Shown in pieces: positions 22,118 to 55,312 of a stretch of DNA of 64,000 nt. The first letter of the stretch is position 1. Every line of letters begins with the position of its first letter. This stretch comes from Minisyncoccota bacterium. GTDB taxonomy: Bacteria; Patescibacteriota; Minisyncoccia; Phycocordibacterales; SBAW01. The translations under genes were made by a program, and so were the position numbers. Where the stretch lies: positions 1-64,000 of the forward strand of contig DASZWM010000005.1 of the NCBI GenBank assembly GCA_035546615.1, in the 5' to 3' direction. The notes beneath the pieces are model-generated. The model was not told where the DNA came from. It made no database searches and saw only the letters and a list, made by a program, of their open reading frames with translations.

Positions 22118-23215
22118 ATGAAATTCGAATCCACAACTGAACAGCTCCTCTCGGCGGTTTCGCTTGCAAGCAGGTTCGTGGAAAAGCGCGCGAATCTTCC
22201 GGTGCTTGCAAGTATTCTGCTTATCGCCGAAAAAGGCCGCCTGATACTGCGCGCTACCAATCTTGAATGCGGGGTTGAAATAACCGCGCAGGCCAAAGTA
22301 CTTGAAGAGGGTATCGCGGCCATTCCGGGGTCAGTATTGGCCGGGTTCCTTGGGAATGCCCGCGGCAAGACTGTATCAGCTCAGCTTTCCGGAGGCACGC
22401 TCAAGATGGAGACGGAACGCGCTTCAGCGTCTATAAAAACCGTGCCGCATGAGGACTTTCCGATATTGCCGCAGGTAGCGGCTACTACGTCGCTTACGGT
22501 TAAAGCGAGCGACCTTTCCAAGCTTATCCGCTCGGTAGCGTATTGCGCTTCGACTTCCGCGATAAAGCCGGAGCTTCAGAGCGTGCTTATCTACGGAGAG
22601 GGCGGCAAGCTTGTGGCTGCTGCGACCGACTCATTCCGCTTAGCCGAAAAGAACGTATCGTTGCGCTCGCAAGGCTCGGTACCGCAGCTCCTGGTACCCG
22701 CGCGCAACGCAGTCGAGCTTAATCGCATACTTGAAGCCGCCTCGGGCGATGTAGAGATCTATTACAACGAGCACCAGATATCGGCCCATATCGGCTCTGT
22801 GTACTACACCAGCCGCCTCATAGACGGCTCGTTCCCGAACTACCGCCAGATAGTGCCCAAGGAGTTCGCCACGGAAGCCGTCGTGCTGCGCGAAGATATG
22901 TCAGGCGCGCTCAAATCACTTTCCCTGTTCGCGGACAAGCTGGCGCAGGTTTCACTCGCTGTAGAGCCTTCCAAGAAGGCTGTGCTGCTTACCTCGCGCA
23001 ATCCGGACGTAGGCGAGCAGGTGTCCACCTTGCGCGCCACGATATCTGGCGAAGAGGCAGCTATGAACTTCAACGGCCGCTACCTGGCAGACAGCCTCCA
23101 AGCAATAACAGGGGAGAGCGTCAGGCTTTCTTCAAACGGCCCGGGCAAGCCGCTGTTGGTCAAAGACGCCGGAGACGATTCCTTCTTCTACCTGGCAATG
23201 CCGATGAACCGCTAA
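22118..23215 (+). CDS. dnaN: DNA polymerase III beta sliding clamp.
   Basis: 365 aa with three-domain clamp architecture. Conserved N-terminus (…LLSAVSLASRFVEKRANLPVLASILL…) and C-terminal LAMPMN-type motif (YLAMPMNR). Confidence 0.9.
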   Translation: MKFESTTEQLLSAVSLASRFVEKRANLPVLASILLIAEKGRLILRATNLECGVEITAQAKVLEEGIAAIPGSVLAGFLGNARGKTVSAQLSGGTLKMETERASASIKTVPHEDFPILPQVAATTSLTVKASDLSKLIRSVAYCASTSAIKPELQSVLIYGEGGKLVAAATDSFRLAEKNVSLRSQGSVPQLLVPARNAVELNRILEAASGDVEIYYNEHQISAHIGSVYYTSRLIDGSFPNYRQIVPKEFATEAVVLREDMSGALKSLSLFADKLAQVSLAVEPSKKAVLLTSRNPDVGEQVSTLRATISGEEAAMNFNGRYLADSLQAITGESVRLSSNGPGKPLLVKDAGDDSFFYLAMPMNR

Positions 23216-23219
23216 AAAA

Positions 23220-24101
23220 ATGTCCAAAAAAGAGAATCCTATAAAAATACCAAAAAGACCAACATCTTTTGGCACTCCTGCTGAGTGTGTTCGGTGGGTT
23301 AAAAAATCCGTATATCTTATCGCTCGAGGAAGAGCTTTAAATCCAGAAAAACCAAATGAGCTAAGCTGGTTTACTATTGGAACAGGTTGTGTGGTCGCCC
23401 CCAACCGTATGAGTACTGCAGCCCATGTAATCAATGACCCCTCAAGTCTTGAAAAAACAAAACAGCATCAGTCGGGCGACCAATACTACCTCATTAGACA
23501 TGACGACGAAGGCAACTGGCACTTTAAGGTTCTCACACTAGAACTTAATAAAAATTTATTTTTATATTCTGAGACTGACCTTGGAATCATTTATCTCGAC
23601 GAAGAATTTTATCAAATAGGAGAACAGATTCTCGCGCTAAAGGACGATTATATAAGAGTTGATCAAAAATTTAGAGTGATAGGTACAGAGGTCGCTGTTT
23701 TAGGATACCCTCTTTGTAAGTTAGATTTTATAGAAAAAGATCCAAACAGGCCTCAAGTGGGGGACATATTACTCAGGGTAGACACAGGGGTTATAAACTG
23801 TCGATACAGAATAGCGGAAAATGTTTATCGTTATGAGTTTACTATGGGGTTTAACCCAGGAAATTCAGGAGGGCCTATTTTTGATTGGAGGACAGGGCAG
23901 CTGCTCTCCCTCGTGCATGGTTATAAGGCAATCCCGGTTAATATGTCTGAGCGCGTAATAACCGACGAAGTTAAAAAAAATTTAAAGATTAAAGATTATG
24001 ATGGGAAGTCATTTATCGAAGTCGTTCACGCTAACTACTCAGTGGGCTACGCTACCCCATCTTTTGTGGAGACATTCAAAATACACGGGATAGTAAAATA
24101 G
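23220..24101 (+). CDS. Trypsin-like (chymotrypsin-fold) serine protease with no signal peptide, on a low-GC inserted gene.
   Basis: Catalytic His (STAAHVIND) and Ser (GNSGGPIFDW) motifs. GC content is visibly lower than the flanks (A/T-rich codons throughout, e.g. aaaaaagagaatcctataaaaatacc). It has a hydrophilic Lys-rich N-terminus and no TM segment. Confidence 0.6.
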   Translation: MSKKENPIKIPKRPTSFGTPAECVRWVKKSVYLIARGRALNPEKPNELSWFTIGTGCVVAPNRMSTAAHVINDPSSLEKTKQHQSGDQYYLIRHDDEGNWHFKVLTLELNKNLFLYSETDLGIIYLDEEFYQIGEQILALKDDYIRVDQKFRVIGTEVAVLGYPLCKLDFIEKDPNRPQVGDILLRVDTGVINCRYRIAENVYRYEFTMGFNPGNSGGPIFDWRTGQLLSLVHGYKAIPVNMSERVITDEVKKNLKIKDYDGKSFIEVVHANYSVGYATPSFVETFKIHGIVK

Positions 24102-27664: not shown

Positions 27665-27832
27665 TTAGATAGCTTCTTCTTCGTCCTCTCCTTCCTCTTC
27701 CTCGTCTTCTTTCTTGTCTTCGTCCTCGGTCTCTTCCTCCTCTTCGTCTGCCTCGGCCATAAAGGTGCCGATTTCGGCGTCCTCCTTGTCCTCGTCCATC
27801 ATGAACTCGTCGTATGCGAACTCTTTTTGCAT
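27665..27832 (-). CDS. Small highly acidic protein (55 aa).
   Basis: Manual translation from ATG 27832: MQKEFAYDEFMMDEDKEDAEIGTFMAEADEEEEETEDEDKKEDEEEEGEDEEEAI. It lies on the minus strand downstream of ruvC and ends at the bidirectional terminator. It was not in the ORF track because it is under 60 aa. Confidence 0.35.
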   Translation of the reverse strand: MQKEFAYDEFMMDEDKEDAEIGTFMAEADEEEEETEDEDKKEDEEEEGEDEEEAI

Positions 27833-27954: not shown

Positions 27955-28461
27955 CTATTTTCCGATGGGCACCCGTACTGACGCCGCACAGGTAAGGCCG
28001 ATAGCTATAGCGTCGAGCTCGTCGTCAAGGCGCTTGCGTGCGGGGAGCTTCACGAGGCGCGGCACCATCGCCGCAACGGCAGTCTTGTCGCCGCGGCCGT
28101 AGCCGGTAATGGCGACCTTAACCTCAAGCGGAGTGTACTGATATACCACAAGCCGGCGGCTTGCCGCAATGTAGTTCAGCATGCCCATGACCTGGGCCAC
28201 GTGTATGGCGGTCTTTGCGTTCTTTTCAAAATACACTTCTTCGAGCGCCAGGGCTGATGGCTTCCATTCTGTTATGAGCTTTTGCGCAGCGTCTCCCAGC
28301 AGGGCGAGGCGCTCGGGGAAAGGGAGCTTCGCCGATGTTCGCACGCATTCGGAATGCAGGAGTATATCTTTACCGCCCCGCCTTTCTACGACCGCGACGC
28401 CGAGCCGCTCGTAGCCCGGGTCAAATGCCAATACTCGCAAGGGCGTAGTCATACTGCTCAT
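27955..28461 (-). CDS. ruvC: Crossover junction endodeoxyribonuclease RuvC.
   Basis: RVLAFDPGYERLGVAVV N-terminal catalytic Asp motif; LEEVYF, KLITEW-type segments; C-terminal DDELDAIAIGL. Start at ATG 28461 or 28452; the ORF track starts at 28500. Confidence 0.85.
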   Translation of the reverse strand: MSSMTTPLRVLAFDPGYERLGVAVVERRGGKDILLHSECVRTSAKLPFPERLALLGDAAQKLITEWKPSALALEEVYFEKNAKTAIHVAQVMGMLNYIAASRRLVVYQYTPLEVKVAITGYGRGDKTAVAAMVPRLVKLPARKRLDDELDAIAIGLTCAASVRVPIGK

Positions 28462-28584
28462 GGTAGAACACTGCCGGCCGTATGCAATGCGAGGCAGCAA
28501 GGAGATAATTTCCTGAGCAATAGTCCGCTATTGTGAGGGAATTAGCGAGGAAGCTAACGAAGCAGGGAGGCGGCCTGCAGCGTT

Positions 28585-29112
28585 CTACGCGGCGTTTGTA
28601 TAGACCTCGTTAACATCATCGTTGTCCTCAAGCGCGTCGACGAGTTCGGAGAGCTTGCTGCCGTCTTCCTCGGAGATCTCGACGGTAGTTACGGGTTCGA
28701 GCTTGCCTTCGGCTCCTTTGGCGAAAGCCCATGACGCCGCGCCGGGCTGGGCGAGCGCGGAGCCATGCAAAGAAAGTATATGTTTTATTTCCTGCGCGGT
28801 GCGGTTGCGCGAGTCGGTGTAGCCTTCAATGACAAGCGCCACGCCGCCGGGGCCGTACGCCTCGTAGGAGACCGGCTCAAGCTCGCCGGTGGTCGACGCC
28901 TTGTCTATCGCGCGCTCGATATTGTCCGCCGGCATGTTCGCCGCTCGCGCTTTCTCGACGGCCGCGCGCACGCCGGGGGCGGTGCGGTCGCCCTTGGCCT
29001 TCTTAGCCTCTATAGAAATGAATCGCACGAGCTTGGAGAAAAGCTTCGCTTTCTGCGCGTCGGTCTTGCCTTTAGTATGTTTTAGTTTTGCCCACTTAGA
29101 ATGTCCGGCCAT
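28585..29112 (-). CDS. YebC/PmpR family DNA-binding regulator (short form).
   Basis: MAGHSKWAKLKHTKGKTDAQKAKLFSKL is the diagnostic YebC N-terminus. 175 aa. Adjacent to ruvC as in many bacteria. Confidence 0.8.
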   Translation of the reverse strand: MAGHSKWAKLKHTKGKTDAQKAKLFSKLVRFISIEAKKAKGDRTAPGVRAAVEKARAANMPADNIERAIDKASTTGELEPVSYEAYGPGGVALVIEGYTDSRNRTAQEIKHILSLHGSALAQPGAASWAFAKGAEGKLEPVTTVEISEEDGSKLSELVDALEDNDDVNEVYTNAA

Positions 29113-29215
29113 ATATCAAGACTATATACGAATCCCTATCTAAATTCCAAGAGATCGAACTGCTCTCCTAAAACCCTCTTTTTTAGGCTATATTTACCGC
29201 GATGTTGACATCTCC

Positions 29216-29245
29216 TTGACAGATGTAAACTTAAAGGGGTATTAT
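29216..29245 (+). promoter_or_regulatory. Sigma70-like promoter for the fic gene.
   Basis: TTGACA (29216-29221), 18-nt spacer, TATTAT (29240-29245). It is about 27 nt upstream of ATG 29273, in an AT-rich spacer. Confidence 0.4.
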
Positions 29246-29272
29246 CTTTACATCCTGTAGAGGGTAAAATAT

Positions 29273-30409
29273 ATGAAAATAGGAGAATTCATTCAGCAAC
29301 CCCAAGGTTTTAAAACCTTTGTGCCCGATAAGTTTCCTCACAAGGATTTATCAAGCGTTATATTAAATCCGCAAACCTCTCAGCTTCACGCCCGGGCCGC
29401 TTTTTTGCTTGGGAAGTTGGATGGCATCACTCAACTTCTGCCAGATTTGGATTTTTTCATCTTCATGTATGTAAGAAAAGAAGCGGCGTTCTCAAGCGAA
29501 ATAGAGGGCACAAGAGCGACAATGATTGACGCTATCAGAGCGGAAGTAGAACTTACTCGCGATCTGCCTAATGACGTGGAGAACATTCTAAAATACATTG
29601 ACGCAATGAACTATGGTCTTAAGAGACTCGAGAACTTTCCACTCTCTCTGCGCCTCATTCGAGAGGTACATAAGACCCTTCTTGAACAGACGCAAGGCGG
29701 TATAGGCAAAACACCAGGAGAGTTTAGAACTTCTCAAAATTGGATCGGGGGTGCCTCGCCCGCAACGGCACGCTTCGTACCACCCCCTGTCGCAGCTATG
29801 CATGACGCCCTAGGGGACTTAGAGAAGTTTCTACATAATAGTGCGGATATTCCACCTCTTATCAAAACCGCTCTTGCACACTCTCAGTTCGAAACAATAC
29901 ATCCTTTTCTGGATGGTAATGGCCGCACAGGTAGACTTCTCGTCACCTTTTACCTCTGCCAACAGGAAGTACTTGAACGTCCGGTATTGTATCTCTCTGC
30001 CTATTTTAAGAAGCATCGAGACACCTATTTTGATCTGCTTAACGGCTACCATAACAAAGGCGAAATAGTCCCGTGGCTGAACTTCTTTTTAGAAGGAGTG
30101 GCTGAAGTGGCAGAGGCAGCAATTAAGGTTTCTCAAGCCATTAATATCTTACGTGAGGAAGACCAAATGAAAATTCAGGCTTTTGGTAGGTCGGCTGGCG
30201 TAGCGATGAAAGTGCTAAGAGCGCTTTACAAACTTCCTATTGTAGACGTACGCAAAATTCAGGAGTTGACAGGCTATTCCAGAACAGCCGCGAACAACTT
30301 TGTGAAAAAGCTTGTGGATCTGGAGATTCTTGTTCAGCGTAATAAAAAAGCTACCTATGGGCGACAATTCGAATACGCACGCTATTTAAAACTCTTTGCA
30401 AAAGAGTAA
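29273..30409 (+). CDS. fic: Fic family protein (putative AMPylase) with an N-terminal inhibitory motif and a C-terminal winged-helix-like domain, on a low-GC gene.
   Basis: Fic active-site motif HPFLDGNGRTGR. SxxxEG inhibitory motif (AAFSSEIEGT) upstream in the same polypeptide (class II arrangement). GC is clearly lower than the flanks. Inserted between yebC and ruvB. Confidence 0.85.
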   Translation: MKIGEFIQQPQGFKTFVPDKFPHKDLSSVILNPQTSQLHARAAFLLGKLDGITQLLPDLDFFIFMYVRKEAAFSSEIEGTRATMIDAIRAEVELTRDLPNDVENILKYIDAMNYGLKRLENFPLSLRLIREVHKTLLEQTQGGIGKTPGEFRTSQNWIGGASPATARFVPPPVAAMHDALGDLEKFLHNSADIPPLIKTALAHSQFETIHPFLDGNGRTGRLLVTFYLCQQEVLERPVLYLSAYFKKHRDTYFDLLNGYHNKGEIVPWLNFFLEGVAEVAEAAIKVSQAINILREEDQMKIQAFGRSAGVAMKVLRALYKLPIVDVRKIQELTGYSRTAANNFVKKLVDLEILVQRNKKATYGRQFEYARYLKLFAKE

Positions 30410-30413
30410 TCGC

Positions 30414-31469
30414 CTACAACAGCTTTTGGTTCAAATCCCCGGGCACCTCGAAGCCCAAGTGCTCGTAGGCTTTGCGGGTGGCCACGCGGCCGCGCTGCGT
30501 GCGCTCGATAAGCCCCAACTGGAGCAGGAAGGGCTCATGCACTTCCGAAAGGGTATTGGGCTCCTCAGCAAGCGCCGCAGCAAGCGCGTTCACGCCGGCA
30601 GGGCCGCCGTTAAAGCGCTCAATCAAAACACTAAGAAGCTTGCGGTCCAAAGGGCTGAGGCCAAGCTCGTCTACCTCAAGCATCCCAAGCGCGGCTGAAA
30701 CCGCTTTTGCGGTAAGGGGAGTGCGCTTGAGCTGCGCGTAGTCGCGGGCGCGCTTGAGCAGGTAATTGGCCGTGCGCGGAGTGGCGCGGCTGCGCTTGGC
30801 TATTTCGCGCACGCCGCTTTCCTCTATGTCTACGCCGAGGATCTTTGCGGAGCGGCTTACTATCTGTGCAATGTCGTCTTCCGAGTAAAACTCAAGCCGG
30901 AAGACCCCGCCGGAGAACCGTGAGCGCAGCGGAGCGGAAAGATCGGCCACGCGGGTGGTGGCGGCCACCAGCGTGAACGGCGGCAGCGGGAGTTCCAGCG
31001 TGCGGGCGGATGGCCCCTTGCCGATGATGATATTGAGCACGCCCGATTCCATGGCGGGGTAGAGCACTTCTTCTATTGAATGCGAGAGGCGATGGATCTC
31101 GTCTATGAAAAGGATGTCGCCGGGCTGAAGGTTGCTGAGAAGGGCTGCGAGGTCGCCCACGCGCTCGATAGCGGGCCCCGAGGTGCTCCTGAGTGCCGCG
31201 CCCTGCTCGCGCGCTATCAAATGCGCGAGGGTGGTCTTGCCTAAACCGGGCGGGCCGTAAAAAAGGATGTGTTCCGGCGGGTTGCCGCGCTCGCGGGCGG
31301 CCGAAATGAGGATATTCAGGTTGTTCTTTACCGCCTCCTGGCCGACATATTCGTCCCACGATGCGGGCCTGAGGGTCTGGTCGAGAAAGTCCTCCTTTTT
31401 TGCATCGATAGGAGCATCCTCCGGCGTGATTTCCGGACCAAGTTCGCTCTCCTCAGGGTTGCTTGACAT
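30414..31469 (-). CDS. ruvB: Holliday junction branch migration helicase RuvB.
   Basis: AAA+ Walker A GPPGLGKTTLA, Walker B ILFIDEIHRL, sensor RSRF, and a C-terminal winged helix. Confidence 0.9.
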   Translation of the reverse strand: MSSNPEESELGPEITPEDAPIDAKKEDFLDQTLRPASWDEYVGQEAVKNNLNILISAARERGNPPEHILFYGPPGLGKTTLAHLIAREQGAALRSTSGPAIERVGDLAALLSNLQPGDILFIDEIHRLSHSIEEVLYPAMESGVLNIIIGKGPSARTLELPLPPFTLVAATTRVADLSAPLRSRFSGGVFRLEFYSEDDIAQIVSRSAKILGVDIEESGVREIAKRSRATPRTANYLLKRARDYAQLKRTPLTAKAVSAALGMLEVDELGLSPLDRKLLSVLIERFNGGPAGVNALAAALAEEPNTLSEVHEPFLLQLGLIERTQRGRVATRKAYEHLGFEVPGDLNQKLL

Positions 31470-31544
31470 ATAGTAAGTAGTATGCTAGGCTTAATGTAGA
31501 ACTTCCTGTACAGGGGAGTTTTTTCTTTTGATATGTTCGGGTGA

Positions 31545-31695
31545 GTGTATCTCTAAGCAATATAAATCTGCAAGGATTTTTGGAGCCGTTTTAAGGACAT
31601 TCCGGCTGCTGGCCTCCGGGCCAGCGTGCGGGGGTTATCCTCAGATGCGGTTTCCGCCTTTCGACACGTTCGAATTGTTTATTGCTTAGAGATAC
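31545..31695. repeat. Perfect 16-bp inverted repeat pair flanking a 119-nt GC-rich structured spacer. Candidate MITE or structured ncRNA.
   Basis: tgtatctctaagcaat (31545-31560) and attgcttagagataca (31680-31695) are exact reverse complements. The spacer contains an internal hairpin ctggcc-tccg-ggccag. It lies in the intergenic region between pilB and ruvB. Confidence 0.45.
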
Positions 31696-31779
31696 AGTCC
31701 CCCCAACTCCACAGCCGAGGTGATCTTCCCCAATTGTACTCCCCTAAAAACGCTCTGTCAGGATTGACGCGGCGTTGTT

Positions 31780-36887: not shown

Positions 36888-37495
36888 TGAACCTTAAAGA
36901 TACATACAACAAAATCGCGCGTGATTGGTTTAAGGATCACAACGACGATACGTGGTGGATTGAGCGGACGGACAAGTTGATCTCGCTACTGCCGCCCCAT
37001 GCAAAAGTTTTGGATATCGGCTGCGGGGCCGGACACAAATCGGCATATTTCGCAGGTAAGGGATTTGAAGTCGTAGGAGGAGATTTTTCCGAGGAGATGA
37101 TAAAGATTGCGCGCGAGCAAGTTCCCGGCGCAGAATTTAAGGTCCTAGATCTCTATGAGCTGGATACACTTACGGAAAAATTTGACTGCGTCTTTGCGCA
37201 AGCGGTATTTCTCCATATCCCGAAAAAAGACGTTCTAGGGATTTTCAGAAAAGTAAAAGAGATATTGCGGGAGGGCGGGCTGTTTTACATCGCGGTTAAG
37301 GAAGCGAGAGAAGGCAGCCCCGACGAAGCGGTTCTGACCGAAAATGGATACGGATACGAGTATCAAAGATTTTTCAGCTACTTTTCCGCCGCCGAGATCC
37401 ATGAGTATCTTTCAGAAGCAGGGTTCGAGGTTGTGGACTCCGGAGTAACTGATGTAGGCCATACTCGCTGGGTACAAGTAATAGCAAAACTCTAG
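36887..37495 (+). CDS. Class I SAM-dependent methyltransferase.
   Basis: Motif I VLDIGCGAGHKS, motif post-I EVVGGDFSEEM, motif II CVFAQAVFLHI. Start ATG overlaps the upstream stop (TAATG). Confidence 0.7.
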   Translation: MNLKDTYNKIARDWFKDHNDDTWWIERTDKLISLLPPHAKVLDIGCGAGHKSAYFAGKGFEVVGGDFSEEMIKIAREQVPGAEFKVLDLYELDTLTEKFDCVFAQAVFLHIPKKDVLGIFRKVKEILREGGLFYIAVKEAREGSPDEAVLTENGYGYEYQRFFSYFSAAEIHEYLSEAGFEVVDSGVTDVGHTRWVQVIAKL

Positions 37496-50254: not shown

Positions 50255-51067
50255 ATGAAGACAATCAAACTAAACGAGGATGCGAATATCCCCGTGCTCG
50301 GCCTGGGCACGTGGCAGCTGACGGGGGATGCGTGCACGGAAGCCGTCCGCTACGCGCTTGAGCTCGGCTACACGCATATCGATACCGCCGATGTGTATGG
50401 TAATCATGCGGAAGTGGCGAGCGGCGCTAAAGCCTCCGGCGTCGCACGGGAGAAGTTCTTCCTTACCACCAAGGTGTGGCGCACCGACTTGGCGCACGAC
50501 CCGCTTGTGGAGAGCGCGGACCGCTTTCTTGAAGAGCTCGCTACCGACTATATCGACCTCCTCCTTATTCACTGGCCTAACAGCGAGATTCCTGTCGAGG
50601 CCAGTCTTAGGGCGATGGAGGAGCTTAAGCGCGCCGGAAAGGTGCGCGCGATAGGCGTTTCTAACTTTACTGTTCATCACCTTAAGGACGCACTTGAAGC
50701 CGGGGTTGAAATAACCAACAACCAAGTAGAGATACGTCCCGCCTTCGCGCAAAAAGAACTGCGTGATTTCTGTGCTTCCAAGGATATTTCCGTAACCGCG
50801 TACTCGAGCCTGCGCGGCGGTGCTAATGAATTGCCGCTTATCGTGGAATTGGCAGGGAAGTACGGCAAGACTGCTTCGCAGATAATCCTCAACTGGGTTG
50901 TGGCTCGCGGCATGATAGCGATACCTAAGAGCTCGCACCCGGAGCGCATTAAAGAGAATTTCGAGTCAGTAGATTTCGAAATGGAAGAAGCGGACCTCGC
51001 GCGCATAGATGCGCTGCCGGAAGGGAAGCGGGTTAATACGCCGGCCTTCGGGGAATTCGATTATTGA
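50255..51067 (+). CDS. Aldo/keto reductase (2,5-diketo-D-gluconate reductase-like).
   Basis: AKR motifs IPVLGLGTW, GYTHIDTADVYGNH, LLLIHWP and IGVSNF. 270 aa. Confidence 0.85.
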   Translation: MKTIKLNEDANIPVLGLGTWQLTGDACTEAVRYALELGYTHIDTADVYGNHAEVASGAKASGVAREKFFLTTKVWRTDLAHDPLVESADRFLEELATDYIDLLLIHWPNSEIPVEASLRAMEELKRAGKVRAIGVSNFTVHHLKDALEAGVEITNNQVEIRPAFAQKELRDFCASKDISVTAYSSLRGGANELPLIVELAGKYGKTASQIILNWVVARGMIAIPKSSHPERIKENFESVDFEMEEADLARIDALPEGKRVNTPAFGEFDY

Positions 51068-51414
51068 GAAAAGTTTTTGCCGATGGCATTCCACGGCAGT
51101 TTCATGCCTGATTCCGGAAACTTGTCGAGAATCCATTGTACGTAAGTATTACTGTTGGGACCACGCAAGCCGTATTTCTCTTTAAAAGGATATTGATCTA
51201 CAGAAGAAGTAATACAGTCAGCCATTCGCTCCGCAGTGGAACCATCTGCACCTTCGACAGTATCTACTATTGCAGAATTCCAGTGGAAGTAATGAACAAA
51301 AGCGAATGTCTGTATCCCGTCGGTAGGGGAAAGTAAGTCTGCGTCGAGATGGCCCCAGCTTTTGTCGCGAATCTGTCGTCCGAATCCTATTTCCCAGCGT
51401 GATATAGCGCCTTT
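51061..51414 (-). pseudogene. 5'-truncated gene remnant (117 codons open, no start codon), low GC.
   Basis: Minus-strand frame is open from a TAA at 51417..51415 to a TAA at 51063..51061. It encodes a protein-like sequence (…WGHLDADLLSPTDGIQTFAFVHYFHWNSAIVDTVEGADGS…YGLRGPNSNTYVQWILDKFPESGMKLPW…) but has no ATG/GTG/TTG near its 5' end. It lies adjacent to the HNH endonuclease and tRNA-Ser. Confidence 0.35.
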
Positions 51415-51544
51415 TTATTCACGACGAACCAAGGATGGATAGCAAAGTTAAAAGGGATACAGGCAGGACATGCAAAAAGAAATACCTGATATAAGTCTTT
51501 CTTTAAGAGTTTCTGGAACTCGGCTTCGGTCATATTTCCAAACT

Positions 51545-51631
51545 TTGGCGGAGGGGGTGAGATTCGAACTCACGGTACCTTGCGGTACTCTTGTTTTCAA
51601 GACAAGTGCACTCGGCCTCTATGCGACCCCT
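51545..51631 (-). tRNA. tRNA-Ser (anticodon TGA), long variable arm, CCA encoded.
   Basis: Reverse complement: acceptor GGAGGGG/CCCCUCC, anticodon stem CUUGU/ACAAG with loop CUUGAAA, long variable arm AGUACCGCAAGGUACC, T-arm GUGAGUUCGAAUCUCAC, then G + CCA. Confidence 0.8.
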
Positions 51632-52113
51632 CCCTGGCGATTTTGTATCTTACCACTGTACCAGTTATTTTCTAGGTAATGTTCCTCTGAGTGACAATTT
51701 GGACAAAGTAGTTCCAGGTTATCCAGCGTATTGTGTTGCCGGTTTCTGTCTTTGTGATGTACGTTTAATATCTCATACCTTGCATATCCGCATCGTTCGC
51801 AAATGGGGCCTCGCAGTTTCAACAGACGAAGTTTCAAGCCTCGCTGGTATACAACTTTGTCCTTAGGCGCTCGACCTTTGTATTTTATTCCTGCACGGTT
51901 GGTATTGGCGCAGCCTCTGCTACATGTATTTTTGTTTGCACTAGAGAGAATAGGTTTACCGCAGACAACACAAGGGTGTTCTTTTCGAGTAGCTAGTCCA
52001 TAACAGGTTTGACTGCAAAATACTCGACCTTGTTTAATTTGACCCGGTCGTCTATAGATTGGTTTGCCACAAACTGTGCATGCAGTATTGGGATTTCTTT
52101 TATACTCATCCAC
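51619..52113 (-). CDS. HNH endonuclease, on a low-GC gene.
   Basis: Zn-finger-like CxxC pairs (CTVCGKP; CVVCGKP; CERCGYARY). HNH motif ILNVHHKDRNRQHNTLDNLELLCPNCH. GC is lower than the genome average. The last 13 nt overlap the 5' end of tRNA-Ser. Confidence 0.75.
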   Translation of the reverse strand: MDEYKRNPNTACTVCGKPIYRRPGQIKQGRVFCSQTCYGLATRKEHPCVVCGKPILSSANKNTCSRGCANTNRAGIKYKGRAPKDKVVYQRGLKLRLLKLRGPICERCGYARYEILNVHHKDRNRQHNTLDNLELLCPNCHSEEHYLENNWYSGKIQNRQGGVA

Positions 52114-54374: not shown

Positions 54375-54446
54375 GCCTTCGTAGCTCAACGGATAGAGCC
54401 GCGCTCTTCTAAGGCGTTGATGTAGGTTCGATTCCTACCGAAGGCA
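54375..54446 (+). tRNA. tRNA-Arg (anticodon TCT).
   Basis: Acceptor GCCUUCG/CGAAGGC, D-arm GCUCAACGGAUAGAGC, anticodon loop CUUCUAA, T-arm GUAGGUUCGAUUCCUAC, discriminator A. Confidence 0.8.
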
Positions 54447-54563
54447 CAAATAGTGCGGGGCACTATTTGTGAGCCGCAGGCGCGACGGCGCCGAGGCGGG
54501 GTCGCGGAAATTTTCAGCAGAAAATTATCTGTGACCAAATAGCGGAGAATAAGATAACAGCAC

Positions 54564-54636
54564 GGGCGATTAGCTCAGTTGGTAGAGCAACTCTTTTACA
54601 CAGAGAAGGTCACAGGTTCGAGTCCTGTATCGCCCA
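54564..54636 (+). tRNA. tRNA-Val (anticodon TAC).
   Basis: Acceptor GGGCGAU/AUCGCCC, D-arm GCUCAGUUGGUAGAGC, anticodon loop UUUACAC, T-arm ACAGGUUCGAGUCCUGU, discriminator A. Confidence 0.8.
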
Positions 54637-54640
54637 CACT

Positions 54641-55312
54641 ATGGAAGGTCCTGCCAAACCCAGTAACAACACTAAGGAAAGCTCTCCTAAGCCTTCTGTT
54701 GAAGTTGAATCAGAGTTTGCCGAATTCGTGCCACAGGACTTCCTTAATGACCCTGTAGGATATTTTGAACGTGGAGGAAAGAATATAAAAACAGGAGAAG
54801 TTAAATATGATGAGGCTGGTGCGCTTCGTGAGGATCCAACTGCTGTAAAAGATTTACCAGTCTGGACGAATAGCAATGGAATAGAAATTCTTACGGTAGG
54901 AAGAAGGGTAAATACGATTAAGGGCGCTGTAGGAGAATCAGGAGATCCTTTCTACGAGTACAAAATCCTTGAGAAGCTTATGGAAATCGGGTTACCCGCT
55001 GCGAGGCCTATTGCGAAAGCAGAACAGGGCGGTACTCATATCATTGTCATGGAGCGTATTCCGGGGGTTAGGTGGTCTGAAAGAGAAAGTCTGAATCTCA
55101 AAGAAAAAGGATACTCTGACGAAGACATTGCAACTCTAATAAGTGAAGCAGAACAGAAAATGGATGGCCTGAAAACTCGCTTTGACGAAGCGGGAGTTAT
55201 TCGCAGTTGGAAACTGAAGGATATGGTATTTGAGATAGACATTGAGAATAAGAAAGTTATTTCTATAGTCCCCACAGATTGGGAAAGGACGAAGATTATT
55301 GAAAAGCAATAG
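54641..55312 (+). CDS. Hypothetical protein with weak protein-kinase-like-fold features, on a low-GC gene starting 5 nt after tRNA-Val.
   Basis: Hinge-like THIIVMERIPG and C-terminal SWKLKDMVFEIDIENKKVISIVPTDWE resemble small Kdo/RIO-type kinase-like proteins. Lower GC than the flanks. 223 aa. Confidence 0.4.
   Translation: MEGPAKPSNNTKESSPKPSVEVESEFAEFVPQDFLNDPVGYFERGGKNIKTGEVKYDEAGALREDPTAVKDLPVWTNSNGIEILTVGRRVNTIKGAVGESGDPFYEYKILEKLMEIGLPAARPIAKAEQGGTHIIVMERIPGVRWSERESLNLKEKGYSDEDIATLISEAEQKMDGLKTRFDEAGVIRSWKLKDMVFEIDIENKKVISIVPTDWERTKIIEKQ

Follow-up and report, generated by a model that had tools for sequence, protein, structure and literature searches.

The DNA analysed here, called the window below, is a 64,000-nt (64-kb) stretch of a Minisyncoccota genome (assembly GCA_035546615.1, contig DASZWM010000005.1, positions 1 to 64,000 of the forward strand), and our subject is a single fic gene that lies between ruvB and yebC in this window. 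The stop codons of fic and ruvB lie 4 nt apart, a 160-nt spacer (29113-29272) separates the fic ATG from the yebC start at 29112 on the minus strand, and 1.3 kb of opposite-strand DNA lies between ruvB and yebC-ruvC. The features of the locus are given below with the means of assignment in brackets; numbers such as L084 denote loci fetched for comparison.

29273..30409, plus strand: fic coding sequence (CDS), 378 amino acids (aa), encoding a class II Fic enzyme of the SoFic type, in which Fic_N and Fic domains are followed by a C-terminal winged helix (open reading frame (ORF) list, Pfam, PADLOC, AlphaFold2 (AF2), Foldseek)
29113..30413, no strand: segment assigned as inserted, 1301 nt (synteny and junction comparison with L084, L005, L010, L011, L017, L020 and L024, together with GC content)
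30414..31469, minus strand: ruvB, intact, convergent with fic (ORF, Pfam)
28585..29112, minus strand: yebC, a short 175-aa form, intact, divergent from fic (ORF, Pfam)
27955..28500, minus strand: ruvC (ORF, Pfam)

We fetched 80 genomic loci encoding RuvB relatives and located the neighbour genes of the window in them by tblastn. The nearest genomes by RuvB were L084, a Minisyncoccia metagenome-assembled genome (MAG) with 83-84% identity, and L005 (76%). The order pilB-ruvB-yebC-ruvC-tyrS-PBP1 was present in full in L084, and the same order was found in L005 up to the contig limit (through the start of ruvC). The distance from the ruvB stop to the yebC ATG was 28 nt in L084 and 9 nt in L005, both without a fic gene, and five more relatives had an equally tight ruvB-yebC junction; none of the 80 loci carried a fic gene at the RuvB locus. 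Because the nearest relatives keep a spacer of 9-28 nt without fic, the comparison indicated that 29113-30413 is an opposite-strand insertion in place of the short ruvB-yebC spacer, with the flanking genes left intact. The first-pass annotation had described the gene as inserted into an otherwise contiguous ruvB-yebC-ruvC unit, which the L084 and L005 spacers bore out, and had proposed that the same Fic gene at this position in distant genomes would argue for vertical inheritance; no such genome was among the 80 loci.

The GC content was 0.447 for the fic gene and 0.437 for the insert versus 0.568 for the whole window, in agreement with the markedly lower GC claimed earlier for the gene, and the drop started and stopped at the fic gene borders. 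When segments of insert size were slid along the 64 kb, 15 of 1258 were equally low in GC, and these fell in three other small low-GC patches. The GC content at third codon positions (GC3) was 0.43 in fic versus 0.68-0.81 in yebC, ruvC, ruvB, pilB and PBP1. The sequence comes from a MAG and the junction content is variable in other relatives too, and vertical inheritance of the gene, or an assembly or binning artefact in the form of a chimeric join, was therefore weighed here. However, both junctions are exact, with ruvB and yebC complete, and the order pilB-ruvB-yebC-ruvC-tyrS-PBP1 continues on both sides of the insert, an order that a chimera would not restore. An assembly chimera is thus unlikely as judged from the gene order, and with fic absent from all of the RuvB loci and its GC3 lying 0.3 below that of the host genes, this whole group of explanations is very improbable.

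In more distant relatives, unrelated cargo occupied the ruvB-yebC junction, as follows.

L014:5966-8865: BrnT/CopG toxin-antitoxin pair and a DUF4143 AAA ATPase
L022:6020-8598: ResIII helicase
L018:6011-6969: NTPase
L015:1269-2690: subtilase
L012:5984-6963: phosphoribosyltransferase (PRTase)
L006:6008-10525: apparent ABC-transporter block (judged from translations)

Because the cargo in these relatives is varied and unrelated, the junction is, by this comparison, one at which accessory genes have repeatedly settled in related Paceibacteria-like genomes. Around the insert in the window, a search for a target-site duplication or terminal inverted repeats gave only short, chance-level repeats, and no recombinase was present. 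Integration beside a tRNA gene was rejected, as none of the 8 tRNAs in the window was near the insert. The 89 nt at the left end of the spacer (29113-29201) resembled none of the fetched loci, and naming a donor was given up with the best homologue only 72% identical.

The identical protein in the databases was recorded for a Candidatus Paceibacterota MAG under the name of Fic family protein. Pfam placed Fic_N at residues 38-116 (2.6e-21) and Fic at residues 123-228 (8e-20), both far above the gathering scores, and the PADLOC model of the SoFic defence system matched residues 12-376 on profile positions 5-359 of 361 with an E-value of 2.4e-109; the classification by hidden Markov models that the first-pass annotation had proposed as a check thus led to a named family. 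The protein also matched a PHROG family. The best solved relatives were S. oneidensis SoFic chains (3e-40; residues 39-356 by phmmer), followed by a protein adenylyltransferase (9vjc), a Mycobacterium marinum Fic protein, a 'Fido domain-containing protein' (7xux) and Coxiella Fic2. The 9vjc match had an E-value of 2.7e-35, and 7xux matched only distantly in sequence (E 4e-16, residues 65-294). We take these two entries to be probable chains of EcSofic and CccR, respectively, two proteins compared below; the entry names do not contain 'EcSofic' or 'CccR'. When the whole AF2 chain was compared by Foldseek with SoFic 3zcn/3eqx, the template modelling (TM) score was 0.77-0.79 over about 365 columns, and the chain was colinear with SoFic over its full length, including the C-terminal winged helix. 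The gene also stands alone, as a single-gene SoFic defence system does.

The active-site motif HPFLDGNGRTGR occupied residues 210-221 (H210-PFLDGNGRTG-R221; nt 29900-29935, plus strand), and it had the form HxFx(D/E)GNGRxxR of Fic/Fido AMP-transferases (PF02661) within a Fic fold. Nine of its 12 residues, including H210, D214, N216, R218 and R221, were invariant in an alignment of 40 homologues (A1), and L213 was kept in at least 90%. The inhibitory motif S74-S-E-I-E78-G79, of the form (S/T)xxxE(G/N), lay N-terminal to the Fic core (nt 29492-29509, plus strand), and its S74, I77, E78 and G79 were invariant in the same homologues, which had a mean column identity of 70% indicating constraint on the coding sequence. 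In the printed phmmer alignment to the SoFic chains, from which the offset of the SoFic residue numbering was derived, E78 fell on the inhibitory E73 and H210 on the catalytic H198. By its sequence the protein is of class II, with the inhibitory helix motif in the same polypeptide as the catalytic motif. Two structural features were located in the protein.

29369..29431, plus strand: N-terminal long helix, residues 33-53, putative counterpart of the SoFic dimerisation helix, leading into the inhibitory helix (AF2 and SoFic alignment; role from bioRxiv 10.64898/2026.07.09.737422)
30236..30400, plus strand: winged helix-turn-helix (wHTH), residues 322-376 (AF2, Foldseek)

The AF2 model had a mean predicted local distance difference test score (pLDDT) of 74 and a predicted TM score of 0.75, and it was good over residues 260-378. 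The C-terminal winged helix was modelled as strand 323-325, helices 326-333 and 337-349 and strand 365-367 at a pLDDT of 85-94, and helix 337-349, SRTAANNFVKKLV, was the putative recognition helix. The C-terminal tail alone gave weak, low-TM Foldseek matches (E >0.1) to repressors with a wHTH, among them AntR, HpaR and PefR. L55 aligned with the SoFic hinge residue L50; with regard to the dimerisation residues (SoFic L28, L31, K32, I35 and L50), the alignment starts only at SoFic residue 36, and helix 33-53 is predicted. The analysis upheld what had been read from the translation in the first pass, namely an intact Fic motif with its catalytic His and Asn, an N-terminal SxxxEG motif of class II in the same chain (SSEIEG, with E78 on SoFic E73), and a winged helix in the C-terminal ~90 aa, which the AF2 model and Foldseek supported.

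Upstream of the fic gene, a promoter, three half-sites of a predicted operator and a ribosome-binding signal were located in the spacer.

29216..29245, plus strand: sigma-70-type promoter, TTGACA (29216-29221), 18 nt, TATTAT (29240-29245) (consensus scan, 11/12)
29205..29212, minus strand: half-site R0, TTGACATC, just upstream of the -35 box, with a 7/8 match to TTTACATC
29222..29229, plus strand: half-site F1, GATGTAAA, abutting the -35 hexamer
29247..29254, minus strand: half-site R2, TTTACATC, directly after the -10 hexamer and over the expected transcription start
29260..29264, plus strand: Shine-Dalgarno-like GAGGG, 8 nt before the fic ATG (read from the sequence)

The promoter was the best site in 28400-31700. 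The exact half-site had three copies in the 64 kb, two of which were the F1/R2 pair; the remaining copy, at 37284, was single and unpaired, and a wider regulon was thus not found in the window. The layout R / -35 / F / -10 / R (/ F) was present in all six close loci, with GATGTTAAG/CTTAACATC or GATGTAAA/TTTACATC, and most of these loci had a fourth half-site just before the start codon. Nucleotide homology to L085/L086 started at 29202-29205, at the first half-site, and continued into the fic CDS; the conserved unit therefore consists of promoter, operator and gene, and from these alignments the promoter and the predicted operator travel with the fic gene.

The same design was found across the family. 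A further 160 loci yielded 147 distinct upstream regions. In 41.5% of these, a 9-nt inverted repeat was present whose arms matched perfectly and stood 8-22 nt apart, versus 1.1% of shuffles and 0/146 coding-region controls, and with at least 8/9 matches the repeat was present in 81% of upstream regions versus 16% of shuffles. Usually there were four half-sites that alternate in orientation, near -70, -51, -29 and -10, with a step of about two helical turns from one to the next around the -35 and -10 boxes. A -35-like TTGAC was concentrated at -70 to -51, and the composite promoter pattern occurred in 32/149 regions versus 0/166 controls. The exact pattern GATGT[AT]A, searched for in 158 loci, was limited to the closest homologues, which indicated that the half-site differs between subfamilies. 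Across subfamilies the half-site co-varied with the predicted recognition helix, in figures that ignore shared ancestry, and the pairs were as follows.

Recognition helix LSRPAANxLV: half-site GATGTTAAG
Recognition helix YSRTAANNFV (the window protein): half-site GATGTAAA
Recognition helix FTRAGAQxVI: half-site ATGTATACAAA
Recognition helix YSRQGAYNMI: half-site ATGTCAAC
Recognition helix ISPPTIAKSI: half-site GGAAAGGA

A palindromic operator overlapping the gene's own -35 and -10 boxes, of the CccR and SoFic kind, is therefore predicted for the fic gene of the window. CccR, a protein of Yersinia pseudotuberculosis with Fic and helix-turn-helix domains, represses its own promoter via palindromes near the -35 and -10 boxes (PMC9755527), and the half-sites found here are arranged like those palindromes. 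As a dimer, SoFic binds the 100 bp that immediately precede its own gene (bioRxiv 10.64898/2026.07.09.737422). The predicted operator layout matches both CccR autorepression and SoFic promoter binding.

At least 8000 database proteins were significant as homologues, and the best 120 of these were 62-72% identical and scattered over Ryan-, Uhr-, Lipton-, Yanofsky- and Levybacteria of the Candidate Phyla Radiation (CPR), Omnitrophica and one Bathyarchaeia MAG. Six genomic contexts were compared, and all were different with no conserved neighbour: between fusA and tuf (L001), beside hicAB, near a serine recombinase and an HsdR fragment, after groEL (L086), after PEP carboxylase, and between ruvB and yebC in the window. 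The gene between fusA (EF-G) and tuf (EF-Tu) at L001:3711-9340 encodes the closest homologue (72%), and its placement beside tuf is probably a coincidence. Relatives with 38-46% identity were encoded on 168 stretches of IMG/VR contigs, which are viral or proviral as classed by IMG/VR. Many of these relatives (L168-L247) had upstream half-sites of the GGAAAGGA/TCCTTTCC type. Because of the scattered lineages, the differing contexts and the viral-contig relatives, the distribution appears from these comparisons to be the pattern of a frequently transferred accessory gene.

Taken jointly for identity, acquisition and autoregulation, we consider with a probability of roughly 0.75 that the fic gene is a laterally acquired single-gene SoFic-type module with an autoregulatory design, situated in the ruvB-yebC-ruvC unit of a member of the Paceibacteria (CPR). 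SoFic (S. oneidensis SO_4266/MloA; 3eqx, 3zcn, 9tcl; the PADLOC/DefenseFinder family) has in common with the window protein the N-terminal helix with Fic_N, the Fic core and the C-terminal wHTH, the class II motif (E78 for E73), the catalytic motif (H210 for H198), the hinge leucine (L55 for L50) and the state of a single gene with its own AT-rich promoter region. Several points weigh against this interpretation. The identity with S. oneidensis SoFic is only about 28%, and the NCBIfam SoFic equivalog model (NF046030) gave 173.8 bits, below its cutoff of 550. SoFic Y241 aligned with F253, though the neighbouring Y252 is invariant. The AF2 model was poor over residues 74-156 (pLDDT <50), so the inhibitory helix is assigned from its sequence motif rather than from modelled geometry. 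The fourth half-site, at about -10 in the close homologues, is degenerate in the window, and no defence genes flank the locus. Finally, the tuf gene of the window's own host lies outside the window, and the CPR EF-Tu encoded in L001, beside the closest homologue, reads RGITIALHH and differs from the EF-Tu targeted by SoFic; by E. coli numbering we take this to mean that T62 is kept and that T65, the main SoFic site, is replaced by Leu. With 28% identity and a score below the equivalog cutoff, function is not transferable as it would be for an orthologue, and the comparisons identify the fic protein as a SoFic-type family member, not as an orthologue or equivalog of the Shewanella enzyme.

CccR resembles the window protein in its C-terminal DNA-binding domain and N-terminal inhibitory motif. 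It differs as an effector secreted by a type VI secretion system that AMPylates FtsZ Thr8, a residue conserved in Enterobacteriaceae only (PMC9755527), and a secretion-system context is absent here. The class I FicT/FicA (VbhT/VbhA) and Doc/Phd systems share the Fido fold and are toxic by modifying essential proteins, Doc phosphorylating EF-Tu; their inhibitory helix comes from a separate small antitoxin gene, whereas here it is in the same chain. EcSofic is homologous over the full length of the protein and is neutralised by the product of a 47-aa downstream gene, AS1 (PMC12249575), in contrast to the 4 nt that lie between fic and the ruvB stop in the window.

A search for an antitoxin or RNA partner agreed with these differences. 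The 160-nt spacer contained just two ORFs, one of 35 aa (29101-29208), which overlaps the start of yebC, and one of 36 aa in antisense; no support was found for either, and the spacer thus had no supported ORF of at least 20 aa. A small RNA or structured leader was rejected, as Rfam gave one sub-threshold match to a eukaryotic snoRNA and the fold z-score was 0.07. An AS1-like downstream gene is impossible with 4 nt between the fic and ruvB stops, and the plus-strand ORF 30396-30698 was set aside as antisense to ruvB. No adjacent small antitoxin gene of the Sofic-AS1 or class I FicTA type was thus found. Because the inhibitor is intramolecular, this orphan state is normal for a class II Fic. 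The first-pass annotation had called the gene an orphan with a near-consensus promoter of its own (TTGACA-18-TATTAT) and had advised searching the spacer for an antitoxin ORF or small RNA; the 11/12 promoter match and the search results agreed with it on each point. It missed the named SoFic family, the orphan state as the norm of the class, and the conserved operator moving with the gene.

The self-contained set of promoter, operator and gene, which lands among essential genes in several genomes, together with the toxicity of wild-type EcSofic in E. coli (PMC12249575), might suggest a selfish, addiction-like cassette, that is, a self-repressed toxin whose loss or deregulation is harmful and which gives the host no benefit. 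However, the inhibitor is in the same chain and an unstable antitoxin is lacking, so that classical post-segregational logic is inapplicable; an AS1-like ORF would not fit downstream; and the coding sequence is constrained, with an intact motif and the 70% mean column identity over 40 homologues. We therefore regard a selfish cassette as quite unlikely.

In the mechanism that we propose for the SoFic-type module, the fic gene would have arrived with its own promoter and operator at the ruvB-yebC spacer, and a dimer would bind the half-sites through two winged helices and repress its own transcription. Such autorepression would keep a potentially toxic enzyme low. By homology, the enzyme would both AMPylate and deAMPylate a host protein. 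SoFic AMPylates EF-Tu at T65 and T62 and blocks translation, and the reversal uses E73 (bioRxiv 10.64898/2026.07.09.737422); EcSofic is toxic, and its toxicity requires dimerisation and the C-terminal domain (PMC12249575). The switch I region of EF-Tu would thus be the best-precedented target, AMPylation of which stops translation, although we consider EF-Tu as the target here to be less likely than not. A trigger, presumably infection, would lead to AMPylation of an essential host protein and then to cell arrest. An abortive-infection-type role in phage defence, which follows from the family assignment only, has in our judgement about even odds.

An alternative is that the protein is a housekeeping regulator, a transcription factor combined with a default deAMPylase/AMPylase that tunes translation to physiology without a role against phages. 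SoFic is constitutively a deAMPylase and was proposed by its authors to be a dual transcriptional and translational regulator (bioRxiv 10.64898/2026.07.09.737422), CccR regulates other genes too (PMC9755527), and the locus is in no defence island, with repair, pilus and cell-wall genes as neighbours. Nevertheless, the gene is patchily distributed and absent from the nearest relatives, its composition is foreign, relatives are found on the 168 IMG/VR stretches, the protein matches a PHROG family, and the 64 kb contain no other pair of operator sites. The patchiness, composition, viral-contig relatives and lone operator pair point to an accessory mobile gene, and we consider the housekeeping role unlikely.

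We also considered a more specific proposal, which is speculative and rather unlikely: that the promoter-operator-fic unit (about 1.2 kb, 29202-30409) might be a minimal recombinase-free mobile cassette that repeatedly settles in short spacers of core operons of CPR bacteria (ruvB-yebC in the window, fusA-tuf in L001 and downstream of groEL in L086), its operator co-evolving with the recognition helix as a private autorepression circuit of each lineage. The CPR target or site would in this proposal be other than EF-Tu T65, because T65 is not conserved in the CPR EF-Tu of L001.

With regard to the host operon, no intrinsic terminator was found between fic and ruvB, and the count of terminator-like sites was below the shuffle expectation. 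Because the genes are convergent without a terminator-like site between them, transcription of fic would be expected to collide with that of ruvB if fic were not under tight repression. On the other side of the insert, a candidate replacement promoter for yebC-ruvC was found.

29121..29150, minus strand: TTGGAA, 18 nt, TATAGT, a weak candidate with a 9/12 consensus match

The yebC ATG, which no Shine-Dalgarno sequence precedes, follows 8 nt after the end of the -10 box, and the candidate promoter could drive a near-leaderless yebC-ruvC transcript. The YebC encoded here has 175 aa, and the YebC matches found by tblastn in relatives (L005-L025) extend over about 174-178 aa. Pfam matched the second and third YebC domains in two pieces, the best covering profile positions 2-55 of 160; a shortened YebC looks, from these matches, lineage-wide. 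A possible gene, a 55-aa ORF of nearly all Glu and Asp without a Pfam match, lies between tyrS and ruvC (27665-27832, minus strand).

Other low-GC genes were observed in the window. The single gene 23220-24101 (plus strand; GC 0.40, GC3 0.36), directly after dnaN (22118-23215), encodes a trypsin-like peptidase by Pfam (Trypsin_2, 1.7e-09) and is probably another acquired gene. An HNH endonuclease gene at 51619-52113 (minus strand; GC 0.44; Pfam HNH, 6.6e-07) overlaps tRNA-Ser(tga) (51546-51633) by 15 nt, and the stretch of about 50950-52100, which is low in GC throughout, may be a mobile-element remnant. The ORF 54641-55312 (plus strand; GC 0.43; 223 aa), without a Pfam match, directly follows tRNA-Arg and tRNA-Val (54375-54637).

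SoFIC is reported to rank second in prevalence among the defence families of groundwater MAGs, and defence systems to be dense in CPR genomes (PMC12259885). The gene is thus a member of an abundant family that has already been surveyed in groundwater and CPR genomes and is under biochemical study, and it adds little by itself. The locus, in contrast, is an unusually clean natural experiment, with exact borders and an empty site kept in relatives, without mobility genes. The family-wide comparison yields an explicit, testable operator that extends the single-case results for CccR and SoFic. The operon that the insert divides serves Holliday-junction resolution, and the head-on transcription of fic and ruvB without a terminator may be the reason why tight autorepression has been kept. 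Given an EF-Tu in L001 without the main mapped site, the finding raises the question of the target of SoFic in CPR bacteria.

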